Source: Escherichia phage a48. Taken from it: 64,000 nt of DNA. Position 1 is the first letter of the stretch, and each line of letters opens with the position of its first letter. Shown piece after piece: positions 2,332-63,595 of the stretch. The translations under genes were made by a program, and so were the position numbers. The notes beneath the pieces were generated by a model, which was not told where the DNA came from, made no database searches, and saw only the letters and a list, made by a program, of their open reading frames with translations. The DNA lies in the sequence record OQ067375.1. One strand, given 5' to 3'.

Positions 2332-2386
2332 GATGTTTAATTGCGGTACAAGTATATAATATCATGTCCTGTACCAAAGTAAACAA

Positions 2387-2719
2387 TTATTTTACTACTT
2401 TCCAATGCTGCATGTCAAGTTTACCAACTTTTTTCATCTTCTCAATTAAGCGTTCGGCACGTTGGCGAGCTGTAACATAATGCCATTCGCCTAATTCATT
2501 TTGTTCAATTTTTCCAACGATTACTGTATTCAATTCATAAATCCAACCAGTAAAGAAATTATGAACTTGAATTGTAAAGGTGAAATCTGTTCCCATACCT
2601 TCTGTTGTTTCTACTTCAATAATATCACCTTCAACTGCCATTAAGAACCACATAGTTTCATTATATTTACCGTTGAAGCATTTAGTTTTAACTGCAGCGT
2701 TCAGATTAATCGTTTTCAT
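2387..2719 (-). CDS. hypothetical protein
   Basis: 110-aa ORF; early-type promoter 28 bp upstream. Confidence 0.45.
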   Translation of the reverse strand: MKTINLNAAVKTKCFNGKYNETMWFLMAVEGDIIEVETTEGMGTDFTFTIQVHNFFTGWIYELNTVIVGKIEQNELGEWHYVTARQRAERLIEKMKKVGKLDMQHWKVVK

Positions 2720-2746
2720 TTTATTCTCCTTTGTTTGTGTAAGATA

Positions 2747-2777
2747 ATACTATCACAAAGGAACCGTACTGTAAACA
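2747..2777 (-). promoter_or_regulatory. T-even early-type promoter (GTTTACA, 18-bp spacer, TAGTAT)
   Basis: Minus-strand -35 GTTTAC at 2776..2771 and -10 at 2752..2747; same architecture repeated 14 times in window. Confidence 0.5.
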
Positions 2778-2795
2778 ACTTTGTGCAATCTTTGG

Positions 2796-2823
2796 AAAAT
2801 AAAAAGGACTCCCGAAGGAGTCC
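2796..2823 (-). terminator. rho-independent terminator (GGACTCC-ttcg-GGAGTCC + U-run)
   Basis: 7-bp GC stem with tetraloop followed on minus strand by TTTTTATTTT; immediately after stop of 2829..3005 ORF; identical hairpin after soc. Confidence 0.6.
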
Positions 2824-2828
2824 TCAAC

Positions 2829-3005
2829 TTATGCTTTCTGCTTACCAAAACGAGAAGCATCATCTCGAAGAACCGCACGTGCTCGGCGCATGATCTTCTC
2901 AACAGTTTGATTGATACGAGAGTTCGACCCACGCTTGTAGCCAGCGCGTTTAGAATCACCAACTTTCTTTTCAACTGCTTTCTTTGCTTTAGCTTGTTTT
3001 GCCAT
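2829..3005 (-). CDS. small highly basic protein (58 aa)
   Basis: Track ORF trimmed to internal ATG at 3005..3003 (MAKQAKAKKAVEKK...); own terminator directly downstream. Confidence 0.5.
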   Translation of the reverse strand: MAKQAKAKKAVEKKVGDSKRAGYKRGSNSRINQTVEKIMRRARAVLRDDASRFGKQKA

Positions 3006-3322
3006 TATAAATTCTCTTTTAAACGAAAATGCAGGACTTATTGGCATTGCCTGCGCAAGCCCTCAAGGGGAACATAGGTTTTTGGATATTTAACGACCAG
3101 GATAACCATAAACCCGTCATCATACCTTATAGCTCTTATCTGTTGCACACCGTTAGCTTAAAGGTTCCGGGTTCGATTTCTCGAGGATAAGATATATACT
3201 GATGGATATATAGGCCTTGAGGCGTACTCCCGATTGGCCATCACCCCGGGGTAGCATGCACTTGCCGCTATAAGAATAACATTCAAGAGGTACACCGTAA
3301 AACTGCCGGGGTCTTAAAACTA

Positions 3323-4737: not shown

Positions 4738-5318
4738 TATTCACCACAGAATTCGTTGATATTTTTCCAGTTTAACTTATTCAAGTTTTTCTTAGGAACA
4801 TTAAACACTTCAATACCTGCATTTCGCAGAATATCATCCCAGCCAGGTTTATTTTTATCGTATGTTTCGCAATAAACCAGTTTTTTAATTCCAGACTGAG
4901 CTATCGCTTTTGCGCAATCCGGACAAGGAGAAAGTGTTACATACATAGTAGCACCTTCAATTGAAGAACCATTTCGTGCAGCAAACAAAATCGCATTTAG
5001 TTCAGCATGAATTTCATTTTTAGATGACCATTCCGAGTGAGCACTACGATGTTCTTTCGCCAAGACAAAGCGATCAGTTGAACCAAATGATACACATTCA
5101 GGCTTATGACCTTGAATGATAGTATGTTTAGGTTTATTCAGCAACCAACCTTGCTCAGCAGCATAATCACAACAGTTCACACCCCCTGCAGGTGAACCAT
5201 TATACCCAGTAGAAATAATACGTCCATTCTTTTCAATTACTGCTCCTACCTTCCAGGAGCAACATTTTGATTCTTGTGATACTAAATATGCAATTTGAAG
5301 TACTGTACTCGCTTTCAT
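4737..5318 (-). CDS. cd: dCMP deaminase
   Basis: 193-aa ORF with cytidine/deoxycytidylate deaminase zinc motifs (HAE...PCxxC: HAELNAILFAA, SPCPDCAKAI). Confidence 0.9.
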   Translation of the reverse strand: MKASTVLQIAYLVSQESKCCSWKVGAVIEKNGRIISTGYNGSPAGGVNCCDYAAEQGWLLNKPKHTIIQGHKPECVSFGSTDRFVLAKEHRSAHSEWSSKNEIHAELNAILFAARNGSSIEGATMYVTLSPCPDCAKAIAQSGIKKLVYCETYDKNKPGWDDILRNAGIEVFNVPKKNLNKLNWKNINEFCGE

Positions 5319-11406: not shown

Positions 11407-12585
11407 TTAAAAATATTTTTTAAAACTCATCATAACTTTATCATCAACATCATTATCAATCTGTGCTACAAGATAAGATGACAGTTCTACTTCTTGTGGC
11501 GCGGATTGAACATTATCAGAATTAAGATATTCACGAATCCAAGGATATGGATGTTTAACCGGAGCATCGGTAATTGGGCATGGAAGACCACACTGTTTCA
11601 TACGAGATACAGTTAAGTAATCAATAAAGCTCCACATGCTATTTGTATTTAATCCAGGAACATCACCATCTTTAAATAAATGAACTGCCCAATCTTTTTC
11701 TTGACGGTTAACTTCCATGAAAATATCAACTGCTTCTTGTTCACACTCTTGAGCAATTTTAACCCATTCATCGCCATCAGTACCGGATTGAAGCTGACGA
11801 ATAATATATTGGGTGCCTTTAAGGTGAAGCTGCTCATCACGTGCAATGAACTTCATAATCTTAGCATTACCTTCCATGATTTCCATATTCTTATGGAAGT
11901 TAAAGGTACATGCAAAAGATACATAAAAACGAATAGCTTCCAAGGCATTAATAACGTGCAAACAGAGGTAAAGAGATTTCATTAAAGCACGTTTAGCTTC
12001 GGCTTCTTGTTTAATAGCTCGGTTTAAACGAAAGTCGGCATCAGGAGATTCTTTAGCTAGTTCTACAAATTCTTTAGCATTTTCCCATTCACGGGTTTTA
12101 ATCAGAACATCATCATAATAGCGACCGATAGATTCAGCGCGTTTCATAATAGCTTCATCTAATACAATCTCATCAAATACCTTCGATGGATCAGTATAAA
12201 GATTTCGCATGATATGTGTATATGAACGACTGTGAATAGTTTCACTAAAAGTCCATGTAGCAACCCATGTATCAAGGCTCGGGTCTGAAATTAATGACAT
12301 AAGTACAGCAGAAGGCGCACGACCCTGAATGCTATCCAAAAGTGATTGATACTTCAGGTTATTAGTAAAAATATTTTGCTGATACTGAGGAAGCTTATTA
12401 AACTGTGCAGCATCCATCATTAAGTTTACTTCTTCAGGACGCCAAAAAAATGATAAAGATTTCTCAATAAGTTCTTCAAATACTCTATGTCGTTGAATAT
12501 CATATCGAGCTAAACCCAATCCAGAACCAAAAAACATCGGCTCAGTCAAAATATTAACAGGGGATGTATTAAAAACTGTACTCAT
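11407..12585 (-). CDS. nrdB: ribonucleotide reductase small subunit
   Basis: 392-aa uninterrupted ORF with diiron/tyrosyl-radical R2 features; adjacent to nrdA. Confidence 0.95.
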   Translation of the reverse strand: MSTVFNTSPVNILTEPMFFGSGLGLARYDIQRHRVFEELIEKSLSFFWRPEEVNLMMDAAQFNKLPQYQQNIFTNNLKYQSLLDSIQGRAPSAVLMSLISDPSLDTWVATWTFSETIHSRSYTHIMRNLYTDPSKVFDEIVLDEAIMKRAESIGRYYDDVLIKTREWENAKEFVELAKESPDADFRLNRAIKQEAEAKRALMKSLYLCLHVINALEAIRFYVSFACTFNFHKNMEIMEGNAKIMKFIARDEQLHLKGTQYIIRQLQSGTDGDEWVKIAQECEQEAVDIFMEVNRQEKDWAVHLFKDGDVPGLNTNSMWSFIDYLTVSRMKQCGLPCPITDAPVKHPYPWIREYLNSDNVQSAPQEVELSSYLVAQIDNDVDDKVMMSFKKYF

Positions 12586-13223
12586 TTAGAATCCTTAAAT
12601 TTACATTTATCATAATGCCATCTTAAAGCATTGCCTTTATTAACTTTCTTGCCACAATGCGGACAAGGCGGATACTCTGTACCTTGCTTAGTTCTCAAAG
12701 AAATCAAATCACGGGTTTCTTTAGTATGAGGAACATCTCTTGTCGGAGAGATTGTACCATACATCGGATTAAGCACGCCGACTTTAGCAGCAGCTATATT
12801 CTTTTTAGCTTCTTCGGTTTTAGGTTTTCTCATGCGAGCTAAATGCTCTTTGGTAAATTTCCTTCCTTTAAGGGCTCTACTTATCTTTTCTCTGGTTTCC
12901 ATAGAAACTTCACGTCCTATAGCAGCTTCAGATAAACGTCGTCTACCTAATTCATACAGTTGAGAAGAAATTTTATATGAGCGATTTTTACCAGTCAAGC
13001 ACATTAAACCAAAAGCTTTCTTTAATCCTGGGGTGTCATATATTTTACATAAAAGCCAATGAGCTATAAAATGCTCTCTACCTGTTAATTCAACTAAATT
13101 TTCTTTATCATCAGAACCTCCCATGCATTTAGGGACTATATGATGTGTCTCTTTATATTCGGATAAAGGTTCCCGAGCCTGAGCTCGGGAAATTAGGTCA
13201 TTATAGATTTTTTGATAATTCAT
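12582..13223 (-). CDS. mobE: HNH homing endonuclease (MobE-like), free-standing between nrdA and nrdB
   Basis: 213-aa ORF with HNH motif HHIVPKCMGG...ENLVELTGREHFIAHW and C-terminal CxxC zinc finger; same intergenic location as T4 mobE. Confidence 0.75.
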   Translation of the reverse strand: MNYQKIYNDLISRAQAREPLSEYKETHHIVPKCMGGSDDKENLVELTGREHFIAHWLLCKIYDTPGLKKAFGLMCLTGKNRSYKISSQLYELGRRRLSEAAIGREVSMETREKISRALKGRKFTKEHLARMRKPKTEEAKKNIAAAKVGVLNPMYGTISPTRDVPHTKETRDLISLRTKQGTEYPPCPHCGKKVNKGNALRWHYDKCKFKDSK

Positions 13224-15487: not shown

Positions 15488-15804
15488 AAGTCCTCAACTT
15501 GAAAATCGTCTTTAAACAGTCGGTTAACTATATGAGCTATTATATCACCATGACACGGCTTTGGTTTACATGTGCATCCTAGCCTCATTCCACGTAAAGG
15601 CTCTAAATGTGCTTTAGTTATTTCTCCGGATTTAATTCGACGTATAAAATCTTTTTTGAATAATTCAATGGCAGCCTCCCGGCTGCCAGCATCTTTACCG
15701 ACGTAATTTCCCCAAAATGTACCACGGTGAATATTAACATCAAAGTCGGATTTATATTTATTCACTACCTGGCATAGACGGCCCGCGCGGTGATAATTCG
15801 TCAT
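15478..15804 (-). CDS. hypothetical Cys-containing protein (nrdA.1 position)
   Basis: 108-aa ORF between td and nrdA. Confidence 0.45.
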
Positions 15805-16021
15805 ATTGTTTTTCCGTTAAAACAGTAATATCATAGTAACAATCAGAAGAAGTTTTAACTGTAGAAATTTTATTATCAAAATACTCACGAGTCATTTTAT
15901 GAGTATAATATTTTTTGCCATAAATGATAATAGGCTGATTTGGTCCTGGAACTTCTAACTCACTTGGGTTAGGAAGTGTAAAAAGAACTACACCAGAAGT
16001 ATCTTTAAATCGTAAAATCAT
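15758..16021 (-). CDS. hypothetical protein (nrdA.2 position)
   Basis: 87-aa ORF. Confidence 0.45.
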
Positions 16022-16044
16022 AAATCCTCACAATTAAATTAAAA

Positions 16045-16356
16045 TTACACCGCCATTTTTCCTTTCAAGACGCCGTGGGACTGATAATCTTTGAGAACGA
16101 AATCTTTAGGCCTGAGTTTAAGAATGTATTCCAATTGTTCTTTAGTAGAAAGATAGCGGAATTTATAAGGCAATCCGCCTATTACCAGTTCACAAAGCTC
16201 TTTAGGTTCACGACGCAAAATTTCTTTACATTGTTCTACGTGATTCATATAGATATGAGTATTACCACCGGAAAATATCAAATCTCCCGGAATAAGATTA
16301 CACATCTTAGCTACAATATGAACTAACGTAGCATATGATGCAATATTAAATGGAAG
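16045..16356 (-). CDS. td: thymidylate synthase, exon 2
   Basis: Encodes LPFNIASYATLVHIVAKMC...; joins in frame to exon 1 giving VFLG|LPFN; total 286 aa. Confidence 0.9.
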   Translation of the reverse strand, partial: LPFNIASYATLVHIVAKMCNLIPGDLIFSGGNTHIYMNHVEQCKEILRREPKELCELVIGGLPYKFRYLSTKEQLEYILKLRPKDFVLKDYQSHGVLKGKMAV

Positions 16357-17372
16357 CACTATGTTCAGATAAGGTCGTTAATCTTACCCCGGAATTATAT
16401 CCAGCTGCATGTCATCATGCAGATCAGACTATATCTCCAACTTGTTAAAGCAAGTTGTCTATCGTTTCGAGTCACTTGACCCTACTCCCCAAAGGGATAG
16501 TCGTTAGGCATTTATGTAGAACCAATTCCATTTATCAGATTTTACACGATAAGTAACTAATCCAGACGAAATTTTAAAATGTCTAGCTGCATCTGCTGCA
16601 CAATCAAAAATAACCCCATCACATGAAATCTTTTTAATATTACTAGGCTTTTTACCTTTCATCTTTTCTGATATTTTAGATTTAGTTATGTCTGAATGCT
16701 TATGATTAAAGAATGAATTATTTTCACCTGAACGATTTCTGCATTTACTACAAGTATAAGCAGAAGTTTGTATGCGAACACCGCACTTACAAAACTTATG
16801 GGTTTCTGGATTCCAACGCCCGTTTTTACTTCCGGGTTTACTGTAAAGAGCTTTCCGACCATCAGGTCCAAGTTTAAGCATCTTAGCTTTAACAGTTTCA
16901 GAACGTTTCTTAATAATTTCTTCTTTTAATGGATGCGTAGAACATGTATCACCAAACGTTGCATCAGCAATATTGTATCCATTAATTTTAGAATTAAGCT
17001 CTTTAATCCAAAAATTTTCTCGTTCAATAATCAAATCTTTCTCATATGGAATTTCTTCCAAAATAGAACATTCAAACACATTACCATGTTTGTTAAAAGA
17101 CCTCTGAAGCTTTATAGAAGAATGGCATCCTTTTTCTAAATCTTTAAAATGCCTCTTCCATCTCTTTTCAAAATCTTTAGCACTTCCTACATATACTTTA
17201 TTGTTTAAAGTATTTTTAATCTGATAAATTCCGCTTTTCATAAATACCTCTTTAAATATAGAAGTATTTATTAAAGGGCAGTCCTACAATTTAGCACGGG
17301 ATTGTCTACTAGAGAGGTTCCCCGTTTAGATAGATTACAAGTATAAGTCACCTTATACTCAGGCCTCAATTA
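16357..17372 (-). mobile_element. group I self-splicing intron (td intron) carrying I-TevI
   Basis: 1016 nt; 5' end on minus strand reads TAATTGAGGCCTGAGTATAAGGTGACTTATACTTGTAATC..., matching the recalled T4 td intron; exon 1 ends in U and intron ends in G. Confidence 0.9.
16504..17241 (-). CDS. I-TevI: I-TevI GIY-YIG homing endonuclease
   Basis: 245-aa ORF MKSGIYQIKNTLNNKVYVGSAKDFEKRWKRH... with GIY-YIG motif, inside td intron. Confidence 0.9.
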   Translation of the reverse strand: MKSGIYQIKNTLNNKVYVGSAKDFEKRWKRHFKDLEKGCHSSIKLQRSFNKHGNVFECSILEEIPYEKDLIIERENFWIKELNSKINGYNIADATFGDTCSTHPLKEEIIKKRSETVKAKMLKLGPDGRKALYSKPGSKNGRWNPETHKFCKCGVRIQTSAYTCSKCRNRSGENNSFFNHKHSDITKSKISEKMKGKKPSNIKKISCDGVIFDCAADAARHFKISSGLVTYRVKSDKWNWFYINA

Positions 17373-17921
17373 ACCCAAGAAAACATCTACTGATCGTTGA
17401 TACCACTGCAAATCCAAATAGCCATTACGCACATTAAACTGATAGAACATATGACAAGGCGGTAATGCCATCTGCTTGAGTTCAGCTGGATTCCATGCTG
17501 AAACAATTTGACGCCTATCATTTGGCAATTTTTTAATACGATCAATAACTTCTATAATTTGGTCTACACCACCAAAATCACGCCACTGTTTTCCATAAAT
17601 TGGACCAAGTTCACCGCTATGGTATCCTAAATCTTTTGCTTGATTTTCGTAATTTTCATCCCAAACTGTTTTGCCTTGGATTAACGAATCATGTTGAATT
17701 AATCGCAAATCATTGACATTTGTGCTTCCCGATAAAAACCAAAGCAGCTCAGCAATGCAAGCTTTCCAGGCGAGCTTCTTAGTTGTTACTGCAGGAAAAC
17801 CTTTAGTTAAATCCCAGCGTAATTTAGTACCGAACAAAGCAATTGTTCCTGTGCCTGTTCGGTCATCGGTTTCGTAGCCATTTTCCAGGATATCTTTAAT
17901 TAAAAATTGGTATTGTTTCAT
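17373..17921 (-). CDS. td: thymidylate synthase, exon 1
   Basis: 183 codons MKQYQFLIKDILENGYETDDRTGTGT... ending ...QRSVDVFLG; track ORF reads 3 nt into intron to a TAA. Confidence 0.9.
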
Positions 17922-17966
17922 TTAGTACCTTATATAAATTATAATACATTTTATGAAGCTAAATAA

Positions 17967-18314
17967 TCAATACGGTTTAGCATCAAATTTTCTCTCAATT
18001 TCAGGCGTGAAATATAATTCTTTACCGCGTTTGGAAAAGCGACCAATAATATGATAATTATTCTCATCAAACGTGATATTACCAATATCCATAGCTTTCA
18101 ACCAAATATCGATATTTCTATCCAGCTTTATGTCAAAATTCCAATACGGTGAACTATTACCGAAAATACTGCAAGCGGATTCAGTGAAACAACTGCTATA
18201 AATCTTGTCTTTAGGAACTACTAATTGATAGACACCTTTAATAAACTGAGGACCCTGCCACTTTGGCTGTTTCGTGTCTTTTTCTAATAGAATAGGGTAA
18301 TAATTAAAATTCAT
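17967..18314 (-). CDS. hypothetical protein inserted between frd and td
   Basis: 115-aa ORF filling a 412-bp gap between frd stop and td start. Confidence 0.5.
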   Translation of the reverse strand: MNFNYYPILLEKDTKQPKWQGPQFIKGVYQLVVPKDKIYSSCFTESACSIFGNSSPYWNFDIKLDRNIDIWLKAMDIGNITFDENNYHIIGRFSKRGKELYFTPEIERKFDAKPY

Positions 18315-18333
18315 ATTTCCGCCACGTGTTATT

Positions 18334-19160
<827 letters not shown>

Positions 19161-21690: not shown

Positions 21691-22344
21691 TTAATACTTG
21701 CAAGATTTCACAGTTTCAATGAAAACATTTTTAGCTTTCTGTGAATCAATATTTAAAATTTTTCTATAAGCTTTTAACTTTATAGAATAATTGTTCCAAA
21801 CTAAATTATCAGTCTGTTCATCATGTTTATCAATTATATTTAAAAACGAATCAAGCAAGATAAACGTTTCAAACGAAATTATATTCGATTGAAGTAGTTT
21901 AAAAATATAACTTGATTGAACTTTTGGATTATACTCAAAGATTTCTTTAAAAGCAGAAACTTCAACTTTTTTACTAAAATAATAGATATTCCTAATATCT
22001 TCTTCAAATTTAAATTTAACTTGCTTTAAGCGACCGATATATTCACGATAAAATACTAATGCATCAGCGTCAGAGATATCACCAATCCAAGCATCTTGAT
22101 TAGCTACAAGATTGCTAATAAAAATTAAAGTTAATTCTTTTAATTTATACTTTTCTGATAGCTTTTGGAAAAAATACTTATCCCTTCGCTTTTGATAAGC
22201 GGCATCAGACACCCGCATGCACCAATTATACTTAATAACATCATACTTTCCATTCATATGTTGTTTTATCATTAAGTATAATTTATAAACTGATTTACCA
22301 TCAATGTATCTTTCACCACCAGCAGGCATGCGGAGTTTAATCAT
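21691..22344 (-). CDS. 59: gp59 helicase-loading protein
   Basis: 217-aa ORF at position between 32 and 33; size matches recalled T4 gp59. Confidence 0.8.
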   Translation of the reverse strand: MIKLRMPAGGERYIDGKSVYKLYLMIKQHMNGKYDVIKYNWCMRVSDAAYQKRRDKYFFQKLSEKYKLKELTLIFISNLVANQDAWIGDISDADALVFYREYIGRLKQVKFKFEEDIRNIYYFSKKVEVSAFKEIFEYNPKVQSSYIFKLLQSNIISFETFILLDSFLNIIDKHDEQTDNLVWNNYSIKLKAYRKILNIDSQKAKNVFIETVKSCKY

Positions 22345-57741: not shown

Positions 57742-57987
57742 TTATTCACCAGTTACTTTCCACAAATCTTCATTTGCAGCAATCCATTCAGTACGTTGAT
57801 TTTCTTCATATACTGTAGAATAGGCTGCTTTTTCTGAAGGGAATGTCTGATAATGAGCACCAGAAATTTTGTGAACGTCAGAATAAAGAGGGAAAGCTAC
57901 AGAAATTTCCTTTCCTTCAATTTTCTTATTTCCATCTAATTTTTGCTCAAATGTTTTAATATTAACATAACCGCGAGTACTAGCCAT
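57742..57987 (-). CDS. soc: Soc small outer capsid protein
   Basis: 81-aa ORF MASTRGYVNIKTFEQKLDGNKKIEGKEISVAFPLYSDVHKISGAHYQTF... Confidence 0.9.
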   Translation of the reverse strand: MASTRGYVNIKTFEQKLDGNKKIEGKEISVAFPLYSDVHKISGAHYQTFPSEKAAYSTVYEENQRTEWIAANEDLWKVTGE

Positions 57988-58922: not shown

Positions 58923-58993
58923 TATTTTTCCTTTCAATTCATGGGTTAGTAGATTAATTATACAATAAATATATAAAGCAATAAGGAGGACAT

Positions 58994-59050
58994 ATGGTAC
59001 AAAAATTAATGGCACTTGTTAATGCCATAAAAGGTAATAAAAACGTATAG
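58994..59050 (+). CDS. plus-strand mini-ORF (18 aa) with strong Shine-Dalgarno
   Basis: AAGGAGG at 58983..58989 then ATG 58994; MVQKLMALVNAIKGNKNV; may be regulatory or not expressed. Confidence 0.25.
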   Translation: MVQKLMALVNAIKGNKNV

Positions 59051-59067
59051 CTTTTACTATTTCTGCT

Positions 59068-59193
59068 ATGGTAGGAATTTTACTCTGGAACTTTATTCTA
59101 TCACCTGTTGCAATTGCGCATGGTATTAATATTCCAGTAGTTACTCTTGATACATTTGTAGATTTAGCATTTGCTTTAGTTGGGTTGATTTAA
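59068..59193 (+). CDS. plus-strand hydrophobic mini-ORF (41 aa)
   Basis: MVGILLWNFILSPVAIAHGINIPVVTLDTFVDLAFALVGLI; no clear SD; stop overlaps gene 61 stop on opposite strand. Confidence 0.25.
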   Translation: MVGILLWNFILSPVAIAHGINIPVVTLDTFVDLAFALVGLI

Positions 59194-60220: not shown

Positions 60221-60385
60221 TTACTCTTCTTTTTCTTTAGATTCCTCTTTTTTCTTTTTAGGAATCTGTTCAGGACCTTTATTTACTACAGCGCCTGACG
60301 TTGTTCCAGTAGAGATATTTTCAGGATTACCACCTGAATCTCCAGCGACCATATCTTCTTTGATAAATTCTTTAAACGTTTTCAT
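60221..60385 (-). CDS. hypothetical small protein (54 aa; 61.1 position)
   Basis: Unlisted ORF MKTFKEFIKEDMVAGDSGGNPENISTGTTSGAVVNKGPEQIPKKKKEESKEKEE; ends 3 nt upstream of gene 61 ATG. Confidence 0.4.
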   Translation of the reverse strand: MKTFKEFIKEDMVAGDSGGNPENISTGTTSGAVVNKGPEQIPKKKKEESKEKEE

Positions 60386-60386
60386 A

Positions 60387-61013
60387 TTAACCTCTATTCA
60401 TAAAAGCATTAAAAATTTGGTCATCAATAGAAACATTCACTTTAGACTGTTTTTCTGATGGTAATTCATATCCACATATTACAATTTTATGATCAATATC
60501 AAAATACACAGAAGCAATATGATTAATGATGTTTTCAGTAAAGTCTAAATCAACATCAATATCTTTTTGACCACAGCCCAAAGGATAAATAATGCGAGTA
60601 ATTCGATTATCTTTAACAAAGATTCCACCGATATACTCTGTGCTGCGTTCAAAGTCTACACGCCGACGAAATGAAAAATATTCAGGCTCTTTATGAGCTC
60701 GGCTCATAGGACACAACGAGTAACTAGAATAAGAGATGTCAAATCCTACGCCTTCAATATGAGCCAAATTATCATGATTAAACCAATTATAATCGTACGC
60801 CAAGTCCATTAGATTATAATATGTGAAAGGCACCGGATTAACATCACTAGTCGCAAGCATGTAATTAGCAACTGCTATAATTTCGTTGTTTTTAACGAAT
60901 ACAAACCGCGATTGATGCGAATGACCTGGACCTGCGCTTTCACGATTAATGATATAACACTGGGCACCTTTATATTTGTACGTGTCTTTGCACTTGTGCA
61001 TTTGATAAAGCAT
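60387..61013 (-). CDS. hypothetical protein (61.2 position)
   Basis: 208-aa ORF between 61.1-like ORF and sp. Confidence 0.5.
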   Translation of the reverse strand: MLYQMHKCKDTYKYKGAQCYIINRESAGPGHSHQSRFVFVKNNEIIAVANYMLATSDVNPVPFTYYNLMDLAYDYNWFNHDNLAHIEGVGFDISYSSYSLCPMSRAHKEPEYFSFRRRVDFERSTEYIGGIFVKDNRITRIIYPLGCGQKDIDVDLDFTENIINHIASVYFDIDHKIVICGYELPSEKQSKVNVSIDDQIFNAFMNRG

Positions 61014-62138: not shown

Positions 62139-62168
62139 ACTATACCATAGTCTTGTCAGCTTGTAAAC
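62139..62168 (-). promoter_or_regulatory. T-even early-type promoter
   Basis: -35 GTTTAC (62168..62163), 18-bp spacer, -10 TATAGT (62144..62139). Confidence 0.5.
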
Positions 62169-63595
62169 TAAAATTTTAATTCATTTGCCAAAGCATCTAA
62201 CTGAGCTCGAGTGGATTCATTTCTTTGATAGCGATTCTGCTCAGCCTGAATCTGTTGTGAACCTGCTACTTCACTCACTTCAGTTGGAGTAGAATCTTGT
62301 TCAATTTCTACCCATTTTTGATTTCCTTTTTGAACACCCATCAAAAACTTATTCCACTTATTCTTATCACCATATCGTGATTTGATTTGCTTAATAAGTT
62401 GTTGTTCAGCAGCTGCTAGCTCCTCGGTTTCAATGACCGCAAGCATAAAATCAGCTGTTGCTGGAAGACCAGCAGATTCTGCAATATCGCTCATGTTAAC
62501 ATCGGAAGAATCCCAAGCCTGTTTACCAACCTGAGCTGCAGTCCAAAGAACAGTTTCGGTTTCAACAGCCAGAGCACGCAATTCCTCTGCGATAGCTTTA
62601 ACAGTTGTGTAACTATTTTCTGAATAAACTCTAATGCGGCAAGATTTACAAATACCTAGATAGTCGACAATAATGATTGTTGGAACAAAATTCTTCTTGA
62701 GCTTTAATTCATTTAAAAGTGATCGAAATGTATTAGCGTCTGCTCCACCAGTAGGATATTGCTTAACGATTAAACGACCAAGGGTAGATTTCTCACGCCA
62801 TTTTTCCATTTTTCCTTTATACTCAGCGTAAGAAATATGTCCATCATCAATATCGTCAAGAGAAACATCGAGCATGTTAGCATCAATACGTTTAGCACAG
62901 ACTTCTTCTGCCATTTCCATGGAGATATAAAGAACGTTATGACCAAGCTGCAAATAATCTGCTGCTAATGAACAAAGTCCTAATGATTTACCAACGTTAA
63001 CGCCAGCCATTAAAACGTTCAGTGTTCCAGTCTCAGCTCCGCCTTTAGTAATTTTGTTTAGAATTCTGAGTTTAAATGGAACCTTACGAGCTTTATTCAT
63101 ATAAGATAGCCAACGCGCTTCATAGTCATCCATCCAATCATGACCAACGTAGCTATCAAATGAAATTGATAATGCTTGGCGCATGATGTCAGGAATAGCA
63201 CCTACATCTGGCATTTTCTTATTTCGTTTTTCCGGAGGAAGCTCAGCATTAGTTTGAATTTCGATTATTTTAGACGTAGCATTAAACATCGCCCTTTGTT
63301 GAACATATTTTTCTGTTTCTTTTACTAACCAGCTGTGGTCTTCTGGAGAATCAGCCAGTTTTGAAATAAGTGTTTTTACACCAGAATATTCTGTTTCAGT
63401 AAATGAACTATTTTCTAATGCAACATTTAACGCATTAATAGATGGAACGCTATGATACTCATTAACATGAGATTTAATTAATTTGAATGTATTTTTAGCT
63501 GGACCACTTTCAAAATATTCTGAATCCATATATGGCCAAACTTTTGAAAAATAAGCTTGATCAAATATAAGATGAGAAAGAATAATTTCTACCAC
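62168..63595 (-). CDS. 41: gp41 replicative DNA helicase (DnaB-like)
   Basis: 475-aa ORF MVEIILSHLIFDQAYFSKVWPYMDSEYFESGPAKNTF... with Walker A GVNVGKS. Confidence 0.95.
   Translation of the reverse strand: MVEIILSHLIFDQAYFSKVWPYMDSEYFESGPAKNTFKLIKSHVNEYHSVPSINALNVALENSSFTETEYSGVKTLISKLADSPEDHSWLVKETEKYVQQRAMFNATSKIIEIQTNAELPPEKRNKKMPDVGAIPDIMRQALSISFDSYVGHDWMDDYEARWLSYMNKARKVPFKLRILNKITKGGAETGTLNVLMAGVNVGKSLGLCSLAADYLQLGHNVLYISMEMAEEVCAKRIDANMLDVSLDDIDDGHISYAEYKGKMEKWREKSTLGRLIVKQYPTGGADANTFRSLLNELKLKKNFVPTIIIVDYLGICKSCRIRVYSENSYTTVKAIAEELRALAVETETVLWTAAQVGKQAWDSSDVNMSDIAESAGLPATADFMLAVIETEELAAAEQQLIKQIKSRYGDKNKWNKFLMGVQKGNQKWVEIEQDSTPTEVSEVAGSQQIQAEQNRYQRNESTRAQLDALANELKF

Follow-up and report, generated by a model that had tools for sequence, protein, structure and literature searches.

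The 267 bp (58923-59189) that separate gene 56 from gene 61 in Escherichia phage a48 (OQ067375.1) are a compact conserved module and not a deletion scar. The window, by which we mean the whole 64,000-nucleotide stretch of DNA analysed here, is a segment of a Tequatrovirus (T4-type) genome, and with high confidence we read its 56-61 interval as a T6-type junction without dam that carries putative divergent promoters and a frameshifted copy of the small gene dam.1, in a phage that very probably encodes no Dam. The dam-less arrangement is in itself ordinary, being the commonest state among sequenced T4-type coliphages and that of classical T6.

The genes follow one another as soc - soc.1 - soc.2 - 56 - dam.1(+) - 61, and the slot that in other phages may separate dam.1 from the gene 56 promoter is empty. 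On the minus strand, a MotA-box middle promoter (TTGCTTTA, 11 nt, TATAAT) followed by a ribosome-binding site would drive gene 56. On the plus strand, a late-promoter-like AATAAATA and a strong AAGGAGG would serve the 66-codon dam.1, predicted to encode a small membrane protein, and the loss of one A from a run of six would end dam.1 translation after 18 codons. The features concerned are listed in Table 1.

Table 1 Features at and around the 56-61 junction, in window coordinates.
Feature	Position	Strand	Basis or remark
soc	57742-57987	-	Beyond gene 56 and two small ORFs
soc.1-type ORF, 69 aa	58004-58213	-	DUF7422 (E=4e-46); T4 segF slot
soc.2-type ORF, 64 aa	58210-58404	-	T4 segF slot
Gene 56 (dCTPase/dUTPase), 172 codons	58404-58922	-	ORF list; dCTP pyrophosphatase annotation in 98-99% identical relatives
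-10 hexamer TATAAT of putative gene 56 middle promoter	58957-58962	-	Homologue of the T4 P(M)16.53 -10 (X01416)
Late-promoter-like AATAAATA	58964-58971	+	7/8 match to T4 late promoter TATAAATA
MotA box TTGCTTTA	58974-58981	-	11 nt upstream of the -10 hexamer, read from sequence
Shine-Dalgarno AAGGAGG of dam.1	58983-58989	+	Anti-SD pairing -11.9 kcal/mol
dam.1 5' fragment, 18 codons then premature TAG	58994-59050	+	Codons 1-16 identical to the relatives' intact 66-aa protein
Weak terminator-like hairpin (8 bp, 3 GC pairs), then T-run	59009-59028	-	Consensus scan
A5 run, site of 1-nt deletion	59039-59043	+	Alignments: A6 in close relatives, AAGAAA in T4
dam.1 3' fragment, codons 26-66 of the intact gene	59068-59193	+	Transmembrane helix, W-N...P...G motif; PHROG 2024 E=2.2e-19
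Gene 61 (DNA primase), 342 aa	59190-60218	-	ORF list, relatives, T4 comparison
Gene 41	62168-63595	-	ORF list, T4-type segment

The minus strand of the window reads gene 41, dmd, 61.4, sp, 61.2, 61.1 and gene 61 towards the junction, and the stop codons of gene 61 and dam.1 share the four nucleotides TTAA, tail-to-tail. A preliminary description of this DNA had placed the gene 56 start, the gene 61 end and the gap between them correctly, as the sequence and the ORF list agree, and had likewise described the AAGGAGG, the ATG and the two plus-strand ORFs of 18 and 41 codons just as they stand, the latter being the longest ORF in the gap by the ORF list. Its statement that the gap has no minus-strand ORF holds for meaningful ORFs, none of those on that strand being conserved or annotated among relatives, but there are mechanical ones of 24 and 20 codons, and gene 56 can be extended at its 5' end to a GTG start. 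The terminator-like hairpin follows the gene 61 stop at a distance of approximately 160 nt and is antisense to codons 6-12 of dam.1; with one such site found against 0.6 expected in the consensus scan, it is only suggestive. Elsewhere in this region, AV122, T-01, T2 and Shinka have an additional ORF of approximately 110-120 codons that either lies between 61.1 and 61.2 or replaces 61.2 (the AV122 copy lies at 21985-22341 of locus L014), which is absent from the window (60383-60431) and from T4.

The closest classical counterpart of the junction is T6 (MH550421.1), which has the same gene order and strands, soc - T6ORF029 (soc.1) - soc.2 - 56 - dam.1 - 61, a 56-61 gap of 268 bp and 96% identity to the window over 2.6 kb, and like the window lacks both dam and segF. 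T4 (NC_000866) shares with the window genes 56, 61 and soc, a dam.1 preceded by ATAAATA and a Shine-Dalgarno sequence, and a MotA-box/-10 promoter upstream of gene 56. It differs by a cassette of approximately 0.9 kb between the gene 56 promoter and dam.1, comprising dam, the early promoter P(E)17.40 and a 21-codon DpnII-like remnant, and by segF between 56 and soc; its genes run from 61 (17935-18963) across a 309-bp gap to dam (16846-17625), 56 (16270-16785), segF (15606-16280) and soc. We found no segF, a GIY-YIG homing endonuclease gene, in the 56-soc slot of the window, which instead holds soc.2-type and soc.1-type ORFs, as in T6 and RB69-like phages.

Thus dam does lie between 56 and 61 in T4, as the preliminary description had stated. 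Gene 69, which it placed there as well, does not: in the T4 record X01416 ('gene 69 spanning an origin'), gene 69 extends from the present gene 56 start through segF, and so corresponds to today's gene 56 plus segF, downstream of dam and between dam and soc. The remark that gene 69 is lacking here is right in so far as segF is absent, but the slot in question is 56-soc and not 56-61.

The two plus-strand ORFs of the gap, previously taken for separate elements, are the two halves of a single 66-codon ORF that has lost one A. When this A is restored, the ORF encodes exactly the protein that SholemSchwarzbard, AV122 and others have in their annotation, a gene named dam.1 in T6 and RB69ORF029w in RB69, and it matches the family PHROG 2024 (unknown function) with E=1.4e-31. 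The context of the run is GGTAATAAAAAACG in close relatives, GGTAATAAGAAACG in T4 and GGTAATAAAAACG in the window, and in an alignment of the gap with those of close relatives and with the T4 dam-61 gap the lost A is the single difference of consequence. The 41-codon piece starts at an internal Met without a Shine-Dalgarno sequence (+1.3 kcal/mol). Because translation ends after 18 codons and the remaining 41 codons have no ribosome-binding site, the dam.1 protein is most likely not made here. What had been suggested as a small antisense element at the junction is thus a frameshifted copy of a conserved protein gene.

The family to which this copy belongs is widespread. A tblastn search with dam.1 matched 698 phage records, 688 of them at a coverage of at least 80%. 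Within Tequatrovirus, pS is 0.09-0.24 and pN 0-0.03, giving a pN/pS of 0-0.13 (about 0.1), and variable sites are distributed over the three codon positions as 7/2/13; dam.1 is a real protein gene under purifying selection. In T4, an intact dam.1 ORF occupies 17738-17938 on the plus strand of the dam-61 gap and is unannotated in RefSeq, so that a conserved small protein gene is missing from the list of T4 genes in that record. In other genera the orthologue shows 46-56% identity, or 31% in the case of Karamvirus, and has the same length and the same position, convergent with gene 61. RB69ORF029w and the rest of PHROG 2024 likewise lie between 56 and 61, convergent with 61, encode 63-70 aa with one predicted transmembrane helix and share with the window protein the invariant W-N, P and G residues; RB69ORF029w differs in being approximately 50% identical to the Tequatrovirus protein, and the window copy in being frameshifted. 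The latter keeps the plus-strand position characteristic of the family, between 56 (or dam) and 61 and tail-to-tail with 61, whereas in place of an uninterrupted ORF of 63-70 codons it has pieces of 18 and 41.

A profile search of 1.84 billion representative proteins yielded 20 relatives of dam.1, 19 of them 33-82 aa long and one a 445-aa outlier, and none of known function. Scans of Pfam and NCBIfam gave no significant family for dam.1 or its orthologues, a Foldseek search of the AlphaFold2 model against BFVD returned same-family members only, and we found no paper on this ORF in the literature on T4 dam, gene 61, late promoters, T4 Ribo-seq/small proteins or 'dam.1'. Residues W32, N33, P38, G44, P48 and G64 are invariant or nearly so. 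The AlphaFold2 model (pLDDT 79) has helices at residues 2-12, 16-42 and 52-63, and a transmembrane segment at 21-41 has been predicted for RB69ORF029w (Nolan et al. 2006). Together, these predictions suggest a small membrane protein that begins with an amphipathic helix, followed by a basic patch, a single transmembrane helix bearing the invariant W-N...P...G motif and a short C-terminal helix.

The 71 bp between gene 56 and the dam.1 ATG appear to hold two overlapping, divergent promoters. T4 middle promoters, which depend on MotA and AsiA, are defined by a MotA box, (a/t)(a/t)(a/t)TGCTT(t/c)A, located 11-13 bp upstream of a TAnnnT -10 element, and the minus strand of the gap conforms to this definition with ATTGCTTTA, a spacing of 11 nt and TATAAT (58981-58957), after which comes the gene 56 ribosome-binding site. 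A MotA box and -10 element upstream of gene 56 are also found in T4, RB69 and Gaprivervirus, and in RB69 a middle promoter, Pm:16038, has been predicted at the equivalent place with a score of 21.6 (Nolan et al. 2006 supplement). The motif would accordingly place gene 56 under middle control, with a predicted transcription start near 58950 on the minus strand. In relation to T4 P(M)16.53, the MotA box and the TATAAT -10 stand equally far upstream of gene 56 and the -10 regions are homologous, but farther upstream, MotA box included, the window and T4 sequences are not homologous; unlike in T4 P(M)16.53, the MotA-box region here overlaps the promoter and ribosome-binding-site region of dam.1.

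On the other strand, the late-promoter-like AATAAATA would be read against the consensus TATAAATA, at -13 to -6, of T4 late promoters (gp55/gp33/gp45). It stands 22 nt before the dam.1 ATG, with a putative late start near 58977. Of 12 loci from three genera, 11 have an ATAAATA at 16-22 nt before the dam.1 ATG, and in phages with dam this motif accompanies dam.1 rather than gene 56; the whole plus strand of the 64-kb window contains just 10 copies of ATAAATA. The first T of the consensus is missing in every genus examined, a position (-13) that is reported to be conserved only poorly, as A or T, among T4-like phages (PMC1524935), and no late promoter was predicted upstream of RB69ORF029w (Nolan et al. 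2006). Late expression of dam.1 is plausible.

The suggestion that the junction may hold an origin of replication survives as an argument by homology: the gap carries the gene 56 MotA-box promoter, whose T4 counterpart is linked to oriA. The T4 RefSeq record (NC_000866) puts oriA at 16763, just within gene 56 at its 5' end, and names the gene 56 transcript as the oriA primer; the corresponding promoter is P(M)16.53 in X01416. A review states that a nearby MotA-dependent promoter transcript may prime oriA (PMC3016281). From this annotation and that one sentence, a similar link may be drawn for the window.

Consistent with the absence of dam from the locus, tblastn with T4 Dam (259 aa, DPPY motif) found no homologue either in the gap or in the rest of the 64 kb of the window, with chance matches only (E >= 2.2). 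A second Dam-like methylase, from T4_ev240, is also absent from the window (tblastn; E >= 0.03 for both Dam queries). The direct methylase search, by homology to these Dam queries, covered 64 kb of an approximately 167-kb genome. As a proxy for the remainder we used the complete genome of the dam-less relative vB_Eco_T-01, in which positions 1-125 kb, comprising everything outside the window-equivalent region, contain no Dam-like tblastn match and no annotated methyltransferase. The phage very probably encodes no Dam, as had been proposed from the junction. T4 dam is non-essential. The T4_ev240 gene (263 aa, 33% identical) lies between nrdA and nrdB, a slot that in the window is occupied by a mobE-like HNH/NUMOD3 homing-endonuclease-like gene (213 aa, 12582-13223, minus strand) and in T-01 is empty.

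We also considered whether avoidance of GATC tracks the loss of dam, and rejected this. The window contains 79 GATC sites against 213 expected, an observed-to-expected ratio of 0.37 that is the lowest of all 4-bp palindromes, but the ratio is 0.36 in dam+ T4 and 0.36-0.39 in the dam-less phages T-01 and AV122, and since these values are much the same the depletion is independent of dam.

The missing dam is no peculiarity of this phage. A 76-nt query that ran from the gene 56 leader across the junction to the dam.1 ATG identified the dam-less junction in 322 GenBank phage records, including RB18, RB33, PP01, HY01 and ECML-134, and in 218 of these at an identity of at least 99%, while a T4-type Dam at 90% identity or more is found in approximately 182 records. 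The higher figure of 339 of 528 records at a coverage of at least 80% is unusable as a dam-less count, BLAST pieces having been joined across insertions of up to approximately 1.4 kb. Beyond the genus, a dam-less 56-61 interval with a plus-strand small ORF occurs in RB69 and another Mosigvirus, in three Gaprivervirus phages and in one Karamvirus.

What lies between the gene 56 promoter and dam.1 is polymorphic: the slot is empty in most phages, T6 and the window included, and holds dam alone in T4. In T2, Shinka and an IMG/VR locus it holds dam together with a gene of 181-186 aa directly upstream (1496-2041 in L027, 2325-2885 in L017 and 1844-2401 in L008, respectively), which is weakly DpnII-like (PF04556, E=0.0045, below the cut-off). 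Of this gene T4 has kept, just upstream of dam, only a remnant of 21 codons from the 3' end, 95% identical (L002 4649-4711). The T-even dam may thus derive from a cassette of the GATC restriction-modification type. In Gaprivervirus vB_EcoM_RZ (L013), dam.1 and gene 61 are separated by an inserted gene for a 249-aa HNH endonuclease (2372-3121), another sign that the 56-61 interval may be an insertion hotspot.

These comparisons bear on an account built on the preliminary description, in which dam, together with gene 69, was recently deleted and the gap was left with two independent small elements or a non-coding antisense or origin element. That dam occupies this very site in T4 and T2, and that both ORFs exist mechanically, speaks for it. 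Yet Mosigvirus, Gaprivervirus, Karamvirus and T6 share the dam-less layout and the junction is at least 99% identical in the 218 records, which points to a long-standing, stable state and away from a recent deletion; the 56-61 interval never held gene 69/segF; and the DpnII-like remnant in T4 suggests a cassette that was acquired and then eroded. This remnant and the dam-less outgroup genera favour a gain of the dam cassette in part of the genus over its recent loss in this phage, the direction of change being deduced from the comparison. As for two separate elements, both ORFs line up, one after the other, along a single 66-aa protein and the second lacks a ribosome-binding site, and against a non-coding element stand the codon-position pattern and pN/pS, which show protein coding. 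We consider the deletion account highly improbable. For annotation, the two small ORFs are best entered as one disrupted dam.1, the missing dam should not be read as a deletion, and segF/gene 69 belongs across gene 56.

A more serious question is whether the missing A exists in the phage at all, or is a homopolymer error of sequencing or assembly that conceals an intact 66-codon dam.1 and leaves everything else unchanged. A 1-nt loss in a run of six A's is a typical error site, the run is intact in 424 of 426 related records, and dam.1 is under purifying selection. On the other hand, in 26 kb compared with AV122, coding regions are not enriched in homopolymer indels and contain no other that breaks the frame, which mildly favours a real mutation; the A5 allele recurs in two independent records of different backgrounds, Shinka (dam+ and with the DpnII-like gene) and T-01 (dam-less); and T6 carries a separate lesion, an ATG to ATT change of the start codon, so dam.1 appears to tolerate damage. 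T6 and the window are in this respect mirror images, the former having an intact A-run but an ATT start and the latter an ATG but the truncating deletion. We accordingly give an error a substantial chance, though well short of an even one. Programmed frameshifting or transcriptional slippage at the A5 run was rejected as a further explanation, five A's being too few for slippage and the run being in frame in 424 of 426 relatives. The T6 record annotates its gene (L026, approximately 1732-1932) from Met6, as a protein of 61 aa.

On another reading, dam.1 may be a functional late membrane protein that is conditionally dispensable and has been knocked out repeatedly, as the A5 run in three phages and the ATT start in T6 would suggest, and the window would then be a natural dam.1 null; we regard this as possible but rather unlikely. 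Were it true, dam.1 could be a holin-like or a lysis- or exclusion-modulating peptide conserved across enterobacterial T4-like phages, whose transcript would extend, in antisense, into the 3' end of the primase gene. As a working hypothesis, held about as tentatively, dam.1 might act late in infection as a small membrane protein with a modulating role in lysis or envelope functions.

A narrower proposal, that dam.1 is a late, lysis-related holin-like or antiholin-like small protein whose loss would alter lysis timing, seems to us doubtful. Distant members match PF11351 GTA_holin_3TM weakly (E=0.03-0.1) and the 'holin' families PHROG 3427 (E=5e-4) and PHROG 11161 (E=0.012), some GenBank and UniProt records name the protein 'holin', the upstream motif resembles a late promoter, and homologues in E. 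coli prophages lie approximately 1.5 kb from a phage lysozyme gene. However, all of these matches fall below curated cut-offs (at best 15.3 bits against 24.8) and involve only 2-3 of 19 members, while the T4-type members and the window protein give no holin match; the prophage homologue sits outside a canonical holin-endolysin-spanin cassette, and Foldseek recovered nothing beyond the family itself. T4, moreover, already has a well-defined holin in gene t.

The prophage homologues, proteins of 70 aa, were found at 5001-5213 of E. coli chromosomal contigs (L019-L022), where each is the last prophage gene beside host genes of the yegD/alkA type; a GIY-YIG gene accompanies the Phage_lysozyme gene at the distance given above. 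Gaprivervirus VR26 (L010) carries two tandem paralogues of the dam.1 family (2495-2692 and 2701-2901), the second of which ('MGTLFYQIWKL...WNLLVVPIAATQG') is the subtype that occurs alone in Klebsiella T4-like phages.
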